Source: Candidatus Marinacidobacterales bacterium (lineage in GTDB: Bacteria; Acidobacteriota; Vicinamibacteria; Marinacidobacterales; SMYC01). Taken from it: a DNA stretch of 64,000 bases. This document shows, piece after piece, positions 25,502 to 27,742 of the stretch. The stretch is from contig OZ250169.1 of NCBI GenBank assembly GCA_965237955.1, positions 3,936,001-4,000,000 on the forward strand. The letters are read 5' to 3'. Position 1 is the stretch's first letter, and each line of letters opens with the position of its first letter. Under the pieces are notes generated by a model, which worked only from the letters and a program-made list of their open reading frames with translations, made no database searches and was not told where the DNA came from. The translations under genes were made by a program, and so were the position numbers.

Positions 25502-25532
25502 ACCCTCCCCCTCTTGGGGGAGAGAGTTTCAC
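25500..25532. repeat. REP-like palindrome, copy 1
   Basis: AAACCCTCCCCCTCTTGGGGGAGAGAGTTTCAC; near-identical copy at 30358. Confidence 0.55.
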
Positions 25533-25554
25533 GGAGGCTCGCAAAGCGAGCCGG

Positions 25555-25977
25555 ATGAGGGGGCGCCGCCCGAAGCCAAACTCGACTCCGAAGCCTACGA
25601 ACGCGATCTCCCCGCCCGACACAACCCTAGGGGAAAAAAAGCCCAAAAAAGTCGATTGGTACTATCAACGCAAAGGGTGAACGAGCTGTGGAAGAGCGTC
25701 CAAGTTCATGGACGCCAAGGGTGTCGAAGCCAAAGAAGTCATTCCCGCTTCGAGAAAGCTCGATCGACGCGATGCCGCGGAGCTCGTCAAGGCCGCGAAG
25801 AAAGTGATCGTGGCCAAGGGTAAGAAAGTTCAAAGCTTTCCCGGCGGGAACGCGACCAAGGAAGTCGTCGACGCGCTCCTCGGCCCAACCGGGAACCTGC
25901 GCGCACCCACCGTGCGAGTAGGGAAGTCTTTGTTGGTGGGTTTCGACGAGAGCTCCTACGCCGACGTTCTGGGTTAG
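25555..25977 (+). CDS. ArsC/Spx-like thioredoxin-fold selenoprotein (UxxC); true start probably ~25639
   Basis: ...VDWYYQRKG-TGA(25678)-TSCGRASKF... in frame with the GPTGNLRAPT core; SECIS-like hairpin downstream. Confidence 0.8.
25696..25715 (+). promoter_or_regulatory. Putative bacterial SECIS hairpin
   Basis: GCGTCCA-AGTTCA-TGGACGC perfect 7-bp stem starting 15 nt after the UGA, G in loop. Confidence 0.7.
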
Positions 25978-26040
25978 GGGCCCGAACAGGGGTGCCGGTC
26001 GCTGAACCCTTCGCGAAGACGACACGGAAGGGAGCGCGCG

Positions 26041-26217
26041 TGCCAAACGTTTGGCAACAACATCAAGGGCCCCAACCGCCCAACAGGAGGTGTAGGTCTG
26101 CCAAACGTTTGGCAGACGGGACAGGGGGCCGTAGCGCTTTCGCGGCGTTCCCGAAAGCGCGTCTCTCGCAGCGCCGCTCGCGGAACGACGACGCCGCGAA
26201 GTGCCAAACGTTTGGCG
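26041..26217. repeat. Three copies of the palindrome TGCCAAACGTTTGGC(A/G) with unique spacers
   Basis: Copies at 26041, 26099 and 26202; spacers of 42 and 87 bp. Confidence 0.85.
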
Positions 26218-26302
26218 CTTCGAAACATTCTGCCCCCCGGAGCACCGGATCGGACACACTCCTTCCCCTCGATCGATAGCCTCCGGTCTGTAATCGCTTC
26301 GC

Positions 26303-27412
26303 TCAGGCGTGAAGCGGCTCGCCGAGCTCCATGTCATTGTCAATGTCAGCGAGACCCTCCACGTCAATCTCGGCCAGCCGTTCGTGGCGCTCCATTGCCG
26401 TCTCCATCACCTTGGGCCGACGCCATTCGAGATCGACGGGAGCTTTCCCCGACAGACCGATCAGCCCCGCGTGCAGCATCCTGTGGTGGAACCAACAAAG
26501 CGTCAAAAGATTCGACGGGTCGTTCATCTCCCACCACTTCTTTTTCCCGAACTTGCTACGGTGCTCCAGGTGATGGACATGCAAGCCGTAGCGCACGCGA
26601 CAACCTGGGTATTGACATAAATAGCCATCGCGTTCGAGGACGGACTTGTGGATAGCCGCATAACAGCGCACTTCCACCGACGGCAGGTCGGCGCCTTCCG
26701 GACACATGAGAGCTTCCACCTTGGGATCCAGCTCCAGGGAGATCGGCTCCGACACCGATACCGTCTCTGCTTGCTCTTGCGGCACGTCGGCCTCGTCTCC
26801 GCCGTCACCCTCAGCTTCCGCCGCGTCGTGCTCCATTGGCTCCACGCGCGCCTGGTACGTCGCGAGGAACTCGGCTGCGATGTACTCGAGTGCCAGACCC
26901 ACATCGATCTCTTCGCCGCTCACGCGGCGGACGATCTCCAGAGCCTGCGCCCAAATCGACGCCTGTTCAGCGGTGAGGTAGATGCTGATCTTGCCTCCGT
27001 GGGTCTGCACCTCGTCACGGATCAGGCGCTCGAGATCGCGGAAGGAGTTGTTCACTGCTTTTTCGGTCCACTCCTCATCAGTCTCGGGACTCGCCTGCGA
27101 TGCGGCCTTCGCTGCTTTGGTCCAGCCGAGCTTGCCGGTGGCGAGCGCTCGGGTGAGCCGCGGTAGCTGAGTGAGCTTGCGCGCGAGGTACAAGAGCGTG
27201 CGCGTCTTGGAATGACAGAAGCTGAATCGCTCCATCGCGTAGTCGTAAATATTCTCGAAGCCAAAGACGTGGTAGTGGCGGCGGCGGTTGATCTGATAGA
27301 GGTAGAAGCAAATCAACTTCTCTGCACGTTCATGGTCTTGGACCGCCTTTTCGAGTCGATGATCGAGCTCTGCCGCGGAGAGCGGCGTGGCATTGGGAAG
27401 AAAATCGTACAT
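26303..27412 (-). CDS. HNH endonuclease (DUF222-like helical N-terminus)
   Basis: VLERDGYLCQYPGC...HVHHLEHRS...NLLTLCWFHHRMLH; AAGGAG RBS. Confidence 0.85.
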   Translation of the reverse strand: MYDFLPNATPLSAAELDHRLEKAVQDHERAEKLICFYLYQINRRRHYHVFGFENIYDYAMERFSFCHSKTRTLLYLARKLTQLPRLTRALATGKLGWTKAAKAASQASPETDEEWTEKAVNNSFRDLERLIRDEVQTHGGKISIYLTAEQASIWAQALEIVRRVSGEEIDVGLALEYIAAEFLATYQARVEPMEHDAAEAEGDGGDEADVPQEQAETVSVSEPISLELDPKVEALMCPEGADLPSVEVRCYAAIHKSVLERDGYLCQYPGCRVRYGLHVHHLEHRSKFGKKKWWEMNDPSNLLTLCWFHHRMLHAGLIGLSGKAPVDLEWRRPKVMETAMERHERLAEIDVEGLADIDNDMELGEPLHA

Positions 27413-27742
27413 CGTTATTATCTCCTTGAAACAAATAGCTTTAGATGGTAAAACACTGACGAATTGTAAGGTATATATTAAGTAAAAGTAGTGGGCCAAG
27501 TCAAATCGGTATGACTGTTAAGTGTTTTCGAATCAATTAGTTACAGAGTAAAAATAGTGCAGGCGAGAAGTCGTGCGCCTTCAAACTGTTGTTACAAAAT
27601 GGGTTACGTCGGTGGATGCGAGTCAAGACTCGAGAGATTCGGTCTCGAACGACGCGGGCAACGCGACTTCTAGTAACTCCAAATCCGTCGAGCCGTCGGC
27701 GAACGCGTAGGACATCCCTGCCGGCAAGACCACAGAGTCCCT

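Follow-up and report, generated by a model that had tools for sequence, protein, structure and literature searches.

What kind of unit, if any, is formed by a gene for an HNH nuclease and the three short palindromes which trail it? In the 64,000-nt stretch of DNA analysed as a whole (the window), an ORF of 369 aa (26303-27412, minus strand) runs from an ATG at 27412 to a stop codon at 26303-26305. Three copies of the word TGCCAAACGTTTGGCA, to which no strand is assigned, are found 85-260 bp 3' of the stop. The distal copy (26041-26056) is exact; the second (26099-26114) is exact as well, and lies within a perfect palindrome of 22 bp (26096-26117); the gene-proximal one (26202-26217) matches at 15/16 positions and keeps a perfect 14-bp core. 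Gaps of 42 and 87 bp separate the copies, and the nearest ends 85 bp from the stop codon. Copies, spacing, distance from the stop and length of the ORF had all been described in an initial annotation of the locus, and were the same on recomputation. Its remark that the motif is seen nowhere else in the window holds up to 3 mismatches, a level at which three matches are found against 0.19 expected; 0/100 shuffles gave as many as three.

The palindromes are part of a longer inherited sequence. The 14-bp core occurs 6 times in the 8.1 Mb of the host genome (G000, 8.13 Mb), in 2 clusters. The second cluster (G000:1522405-1522705) is a copy of the whole 305-bp 3' tail of the gene (25999-26303, minus strand), 85.7% identical over 307 bp. 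Identities are 47/48 in the repeats, 33/44 in spacer 1, 77/87 in spacer 2, 67/87 in the part next to the gene, and 41/42 over the last 42 bp (25999-26040, minus strand). Similarity ends at 25999, plausibly the 3' end of the unit. At its other side the second copy terminates at the position equivalent to the stop codon of the 369-aa gene, and no close homolog of this gene is present at G000:1522405-1522705; a more distant family member, truncated by an IS5, lies ~500 bp beyond. The spacers, initially described as unique, thus recur in both copies, and their duplication identifies the array as an inherited 3' gene tail rather than a record of acquired spacers. Nor does the notion of a mini-array extend to the family, since most homologs carry 1 or 2 copies of the palindrome, sometimes in frame inside the ORF.

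A search with the 305-bp tail DNA gave no match in 60 relatives, and the tail is therefore found in 1/61 genomes, G000 itself. The 14-bp core is found among 100 relatives at 9 places, which group into 7 sites distributed over 5 genomes. Close orthologs in G007 and G008 have it at their 3' end, the G007 copy being in frame. In G011 two copies follow a partial ortholog, and two more lie in another version of its tail that is truncated on the 5' side; 3/7 sites in related genomes are accompanied by neither gene nor gene tail. Genome-wide mapping, which the initial annotation had advised, yielded 6 copies in 2 clusters, and not a word scattered independently of HNH genes. The pattern of a sister word was found at 7 places in 55 genomes, 6/7 of them gene-linked, a linkage which is partly by construction as the pattern was built from the same loci; the one further place is a 44-bp gene-less tail (G021). 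In metagenomes the exact 16-mer was met in at least 122 stretches. The family HMM found 0/121 of these loci among the matches listed (best E 3.5), only 80 of the 121 having 2-kb flanks, and L131 is the sole locus, among the metagenome matches listed, to share tail sequence. Because chance matches dominate, the scan says nothing in the reverse direction, from word to gene; taken globally, the exact 16-mer does not mark the gene family. Other multi-copy perfect palindromes of 14 bp (15, 13, 10 and 7 copies) are present in G000, within repeated elements that for the most part lie at a distance from HNH genes.

The association of gene and palindrome is a property of the family. Homologs had been suggested as the place to look for adjacent palindromes, and these are present there: a perfect palindrome of at least 14 bp is located 50-450 bp after the HNH in 26/35 non-redundant Acidobacteriota loci, against 1/34, 1/36, 1/36, 5/36, 2/33 and 2/30 in six equal control intervals and 4.8% of random 400-bp stretches of G000; since the +50 to +450 interval was chosen with the data in view, and related loci do not count as independent, such counts are effect sizes, not p-values. 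A distant clade, in part from Krumholzibacteriota and including Fibrobacteraceae, carries its own word in or around the gene in 34/39 loci, versus 2-4 of 32-35 controls. Duplicates between the G-handle and GTDB locus sets were dropped from the counts, together with loci covering less than half an interval and loci lacking an HNH anchor (L004, L044, L058, L073 and five of the distant clade). Several of the 9/35 loci devoid of a perfect palindrome in the interval have palindromes with 1 mismatch; L040, L044 and L055 have none even at one mismatch.

The word follows the protein clade. In a tree of 78 loci, based on N-terminal domains with at least 85 matched columns and with deep joins flagged as long-branch, the window protein and its orthologs in G007 and G008 make up a 100/98 group, all members of which carry TGCCAAACGTTTGGCA. 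Other protein groups are associated with TGGAAAACGTTTTCCA, GTGCAAACGTTTGCAC, TGGCACACGTGTGCCA, TGACTCACGTGAGTCA, TGTCAGGCGCCTGACA or CTTGCGCCGGCGCAAG, and several different words coexist beside paralogs within G000. Sites in the clade of the window protein are confined to the 3' side of the gene, a long way from its promoter; p2 and Krumholzibacteriota loci have them upstream of the gene and inside it as well. The p2 branch (G000:1521036-1521995, minus strand, and ~17 similar loci) features palindromes of 20-22 bp with TCCGGA, TCTAGA or CCCGGG centres, placed ~240 bp upstream of the gene and inside it, and sometimes again 1.6-3.7 kb upstream. Conserved blocks in two clades (L061/L064, L066/L069, L282) contain a TGTTAC hexamer, possibly a second recognition or nick site, at ~15-25 bp from the palindrome.

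The symmetry of the palindromes extends to their centre. When inverted repeats with arms of at least 6 were collected leaving the four central bases free, the centre was self-complementary in 27/37 and 43/48 cases, versus 1/7 and 1/10 in control windows, and the centre itself varies (ACGT, ATAT, GCGC, CCGG). The loop of a hairpin needs no symmetry, a duplex site read by two domains does; judged from these sequences, centre symmetry therefore points to a duplex binding site, and fits a dyad better than an RNA hairpin.

The initial annotation had described the protein as a helical N-terminus joined to a Zn-bound HNH domain. The HNH part is well founded, but the likeness of the N-terminal region to the DNA-binding domain of ParB had been overlooked. 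The HNH domain (aa ~253-314; 26471-26656, minus strand) has intact catalytic and Zn residues, and Pfam HNH_2 scores above its cut-off. In 25 aligned homologs the Zn ligands C266, C271, C306 and H309 are at least 90% conserved, as are H281, N301, H310 and H314, with H281 and H314 invariant. An acidic disordered linker (~aa 203-249) precedes the domain. Further upstream the ORF encodes a long N-terminal helix, a ParB-like HTH domain and a conserved middle region. The latter (aa 136-190; 26840-27005, minus strand), strand-helix-helix-like and of low model confidence, could by guess be a dimerisation module; a search of the ESM Atlas with aa 134-195 gave no match at 0.9 or above.

The domain at aa 26-135 (27008-27337, minus strand) is predicted, on the basis of the structural model, a fold search and hhalign, to be a DNA-binding domain of the ParB/Spo0J/KorB type. 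About 40 residues, forming one long helix, precede the HTH region, and aa 1-135 were modelled by AF2 with a pLDDT of 92.8. In a VIA search of 48,161 chains ranks 1-4 were all taken by ParB/Spo0J/KorB DNA-binding domains (Z 6.8-7.8): Spo0J (Z 7.8, rmsd 2.5, 91 aligned), KorB (Z 7.4, rmsd 5.0, 118 aligned), the ParB domain on parS (Z 7.3, rmsd 3.3, 96 aligned) and the KorB domain on its operator (Z 6.8, rmsd 3.3, 97 aligned). The first non-ParB chain follows at Z 5.6; values of Z below 8 are modest, and may reflect a common helical arrangement. The top rows listed by Foldseek are all ParB/Spo0J, at a non-significant E of 0.4 or more, Pfam HTH_ParB matches weakly in 10/102 homologs, and an hhalign alignment to ParB stays collinear through 88 columns (E 0.0027, reversed control 0.28, probability 11%). 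A search of PDB sequences with the protein returned HNH matches alone, and no ParB. In the hhalign alignment H67 falls opposite R173 and T98 opposite G201, two specificity positions of ParB as numbered in passages of PMC7383237. Between clades that carry different words, residues of the recognition helix (about 66-73) and residues 101-102 vary, which fits that role but is confounded by descent. Taken with the clade-specific words, the modelled fold makes it quite likely that the N-terminal domain binds the palindrome of its own gene.

Neither the ParB/Srx CTPase domain nor any such Pfam family was detected in 102 members. DUF222 (PF02720) does not match the window protein, and matches weakly in 15/25 and 34/102 homologs (best E 2e-8); neighbours in the ESM Atlas include DUF222 clusters. 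Relatives are numerous, 5,409 at E of 0.001 or less among representatives at 50% identity, a figure that partly includes HNH-only matches. The DUF222-like/HNH superfamily accounts for 26 loci in G000, and its genes are multi-copy and often broken. In 7 pairs, a set which leaves out L001/L032 (saturated) and L006/L007 (broken frame), dN/dS is 0.05-0.25 and dS 0.14-0.70, as for functional but old copies under purifying selection.

Paralogs also help to define the unit. The sequence common to a pair measures 1.2-1.6 kb and begins 174-310 bp 5' of the gene. In 8/11 pair comparisons the shared sequence extends only 3, 3, 4, 5, 5, 5, 9 and 15 bp past the last shared palindrome; in the remaining 3/11 it extends 42, 95 and 121 bp, the 42-bp case being the window locus itself, and the 95- and 121-bp cases coming from a clade whose sites are in frame. 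Beyond the last shared palindrome L006 and L007 have additional palindromes that they do not share. L061 and L064 are identical over a 40-bp block that stops at the palindrome, and the upstream sequence has diverged. Such boundaries suggest that the palindrome is probably a functional marker of the end of the unit. The 5' end is less sharply placed. Two contigs of one sample match the window through the leader (27413-27565, minus strand) up to 27565, and then diverge, which makes 27565 a weak candidate for the 5' end. The AT-rich leader holds a sigma-70-like promoter match (27475-27504, minus strand; 9/12), by consensus only. Enrichment of an IHF-like motif, by an assumed consensus, upstream of the genes was considered and rejected (10/32 versus 5.7 expected from shuffles, and 4/43 versus 2.4).

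Tails lacking a gene are not restricted to the second cluster. Two tails of 75 bp derived from another paralog (G000:4698719-4698793 and 6096566-6096639) have the same two ends, unrelated flanks and a MITE-like aspect; no target duplication is evident at either. The 305-bp tail of G000, the 5'-truncated tail of G011 and the 44-bp tail of G021 add to these. In runs X3 and X4 of one sample a joint at depth ~3 connects 26123 to 26640, removing palindrome 3 and the HNH domain, so that gene-less tails can arise by deletion; the joint starts 6 bp from the 22-bp palindrome.

Neither a target-site duplication nor an empty-site allele of the unit was found; the empty-site alleles which the initial annotation had recommended looking for did not emerge, as no such joint occurs among the matches listed and the tail is absent from the relatives searched. 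Of the neighbouring IS5, G000 contains 80 copies at 95% identity or more. Old copies of the unit beside a near-identical IS5 indicate that mobility is at best rare. Plasmids searched with the protein by tblastn gave no match, and the 9 weak loci recovered from viral contigs all lack both an in-frame HNH motif and any palindrome of at least 14 bp.

The surroundings of the gene comprise a methyltransferase gene, a small ORF with no Pfam match and an IS5 transposase, and no ParA. The IS5-family element (27741-~28990) has its transposase split over two ORFs. The small ORF (25641-25977, plus strand; searched in Pfam as translated from 25708), which we take to be ArsC-like, has four paralogous stretches in G000, and the intergenic region after the methyltransferase gene (25505-25628) has 11 partial matches elsewhere in G000 and is REP-like. 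In a different part of the genome (G000:6789563-6791434), a 1.8-kb block between 65-bp direct repeats holds a broken gene, presumably O-methyltransferase-like, and 66 bp further on comes a palindrome belonging to another clade. The metagenome contig related to the second locus (L131:1-1114) has a 250-bp deletion beside the palindrome, and two tail pieces in it flank an AT-rich segment with a small ORF, ribbon-helix-helix-like by our assumption.

The initial annotation had regarded the repeats as possible binding or nicking sites of a selfish HNH element. That they belong to the HNH gene is borne out; binding by a selfish element is the best reading, as a prediction. We lean towards a small selfish single-gene unit of ~1.55 kb (25999-27565), predicted to bind its own palindrome, to nick DNA by its HNH domain and to be copied by repair. 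Two ParB-like domains would bind, as a pair, the end-proximal palindrome of their own unit, and the flexible linker would let the HNH domain nick DNA nearby; host repair would then rarely copy the unit, or the tail alone, elsewhere. HNH enzymes cut DNA by hydrolysis and do not reseal it, and any transfer therefore needs host recombination or repair. Nick-driven copying of the unit is the somewhat doubtful step of the scheme. It is proposed more tentatively, and with doubt prevailing, that DUF222-like/HNH genes may constitute an undescribed class of mobile elements, in which a ParB-derived domain is coupled to an HNH nickase, clade words mark the ends, and tails and palindrome-bounded cargo are copied in trans; orthogonal protein-word pairs coexisting in one genome would then represent a natural library of 16-bp-specific nucleases.

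The same linkage and fold evidence can be read in a different way. The palindromes might be cognate sites serving as a cis sink, or as an autoregulatory operator, which parks a toxic or stress-induced nuclease; dispersal would be due to other mobile elements, and tails would be leftovers of gene loss. Such a role, which we hold to be rather unlikely, would suit old copies kept under purifying selection, the joint deleting the HNH domain in one sample, the abundance of IS in G000, and the sites located upstream of, or inside, the gene in the p2 and Krumholzibacteriota clades. Related mycobacterial 13E12 genes are moreover listed among LexA targets in passages of PMC4181829. An operator is, however, hardly expected solely downstream and far from the promoter, as in the window clade, and a sink leaves unexplained why units end 3-15 bp from the palindrome in 8/11 comparisons. 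Independent deletions, besides, rarely give two 75-bp tails with the same two ends and unrelated flanks.

It is improbable that the locus is a domesticated system of the RAYT/REP kind, in which host-kept nuclease genes seed or cut palindromes bordering swappable blocks of genes. Protein and palindrome do covary, as RAYTs and REPs are described to do in PMC2817692. The 65-bp direct repeats flanking the 1.8-kb block (G000:6789563-6791352) start with a family palindrome, L131 has its two tail pieces around an AT-rich gene, and a Ser/Thr kinase gene is found no more than 3 kb away from 7/26 family loci, versus 6.4% of random positions (66 such kinase loci in G000 underlie the count). The word has, however, just 6 copies in 2 clusters in 8.1 Mb, and the sister word 7 places in 55 genomes, and it is the nuclease genes themselves that are multi-copy and often broken.

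The suggestion, advanced in the initial annotation, that the repeats are hairpins of an associated ncRNA, and the related one of a CRISPR-like mini-array guiding the HNH nuclease, are both very improbable. The HNH domain resembles that of IscB, yet the score with the IscB model is 24.5, where the cut-off is 175, and it comes from the HNH part only. The 331-nt region folds somewhat better than shuffles on both strands (z -2.4), but three palindromes alone would give such a value, and Rfam has no match on the region (best E 0.82). Spacers are duplicated and not acquired, the four central bases of the palindrome stay self-complementary, and orthologs have single or in-frame copies. A phage search, of the sort proposed at the start for the spacers, returned a single weak match of 52 bp (81%, E 7e-3, in 4 records). 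CRISPR had been dismissed from the outset, and the nearest cas1 detected in a dedicated search lies ~341 kb away. Equally improbable are operators of an unrelated host regulator, or neutral passengers: the palindromes resemble, we assume, LacI-family sites, and metagenomes show the exact 16-mer in numerous unrelated contexts, but the sites are placed inside ORFs or in the gap where convergent genes meet, different words accompany different paralogs of one genome, and the word changes with the nuclease clade, not with the host.

DUF222-HNH genes of the REP13E12 type are abundant, and the pairing of a predicted ParB-type domain with a clade-specific 16-bp word offers a directly testable mechanism. 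To it the locus contributes clade-by-clade covariation, the test of centre symmetry and the mapping of 3' ends. Were mobility confirmed, the unit would exemplify a route of transposition using a hydrolytic HNH enzyme with ends read by a protein, and the family would be a source of nucleases with long sites and switchable specificity.

Among known systems, DUF222-HNH/REP13E12 genes (PF02720 plus HNH) are the closest: like the window gene they combine a helical N-terminus with a C-terminal Zn-HNH domain, in dispersed multi-copy units. Lacking a DUF222 match, the window protein represents a distant branch of them. In passages of PMC13061034 the DUF222-HNH family has no defined function and appears as a gene-conversion hotspot; REP13E12 is treated as a repeat family with no defined function in passages of PMC13061034, PMC10589994, PMC4181829 and PMC3592412, the last of which lists DUF222 as a partner domain of HNH. 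Neither a cognate palindrome nor a ParB-like domain is described for them in searchable papers, whereas both are proposed for the window gene; no description of the gene-palindrome pairing was found in the main texts of open-access PMC and bioRxiv papers.

ParB-parS, Noc-NBS and KorB-operator systems share with the window unit the predicted fold of the DNA-binding domain and perfect dyad sites of 16 bp. In passages of PMC7383237 two ParB domains bind one palindrome, and four residues switch specificity. ParB, Noc and KorB have a CTPase and ParA, while the window gene has neither, and is fused to an HNH nuclease; unlike theirs, its sites are at the end of the gene itself. G000 has a single perfect parS (G000:2357828), upstream of parB, which differs from the window word. 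With no CTPase domain, no ParA and a word unlike parS, the unit does not qualify as a partition system.

Free-standing HNH homing or nicking endonucleases and IscB/OMEGA likewise join a Zn-HNH domain to a separate recognition module. Insertion of a homing endonuclease disrupts its target, whereas the presumed site is carried inside the window unit. IscB/OMEGA or HEARO systems have RuvC, HNH and a guide RNA; in the window protein there is no RuvC, and no guide RNA was found (no Rfam match).

RAYTs (TnpA-REP), with REPs, REPINs and BIMEs, share with the unit a nuclease gene coevolving with adjacent palindromes, and non-autonomous copies, as told in PMC2817692; here coevolution was judged on kin loci, which are not independent. 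RAYTs are HUH tyrosine transposases, while the window protein is an HNH enzyme, and the nearest Y1_Tnp gene is ~224 kb away. REPs exceed 100 copies genome-wide and are stem-loops with a free loop; the window word has 6 copies in 2 clusters, and its sites are loop-less dyads. Again unlike RAYTs, the genes are multi-copy and, in the window clade, sites are on the 3' side only. By analogy, the unit is comparable to RAYT-REP in its logic and to ParB-parS in its recognition, and is a member of neither.
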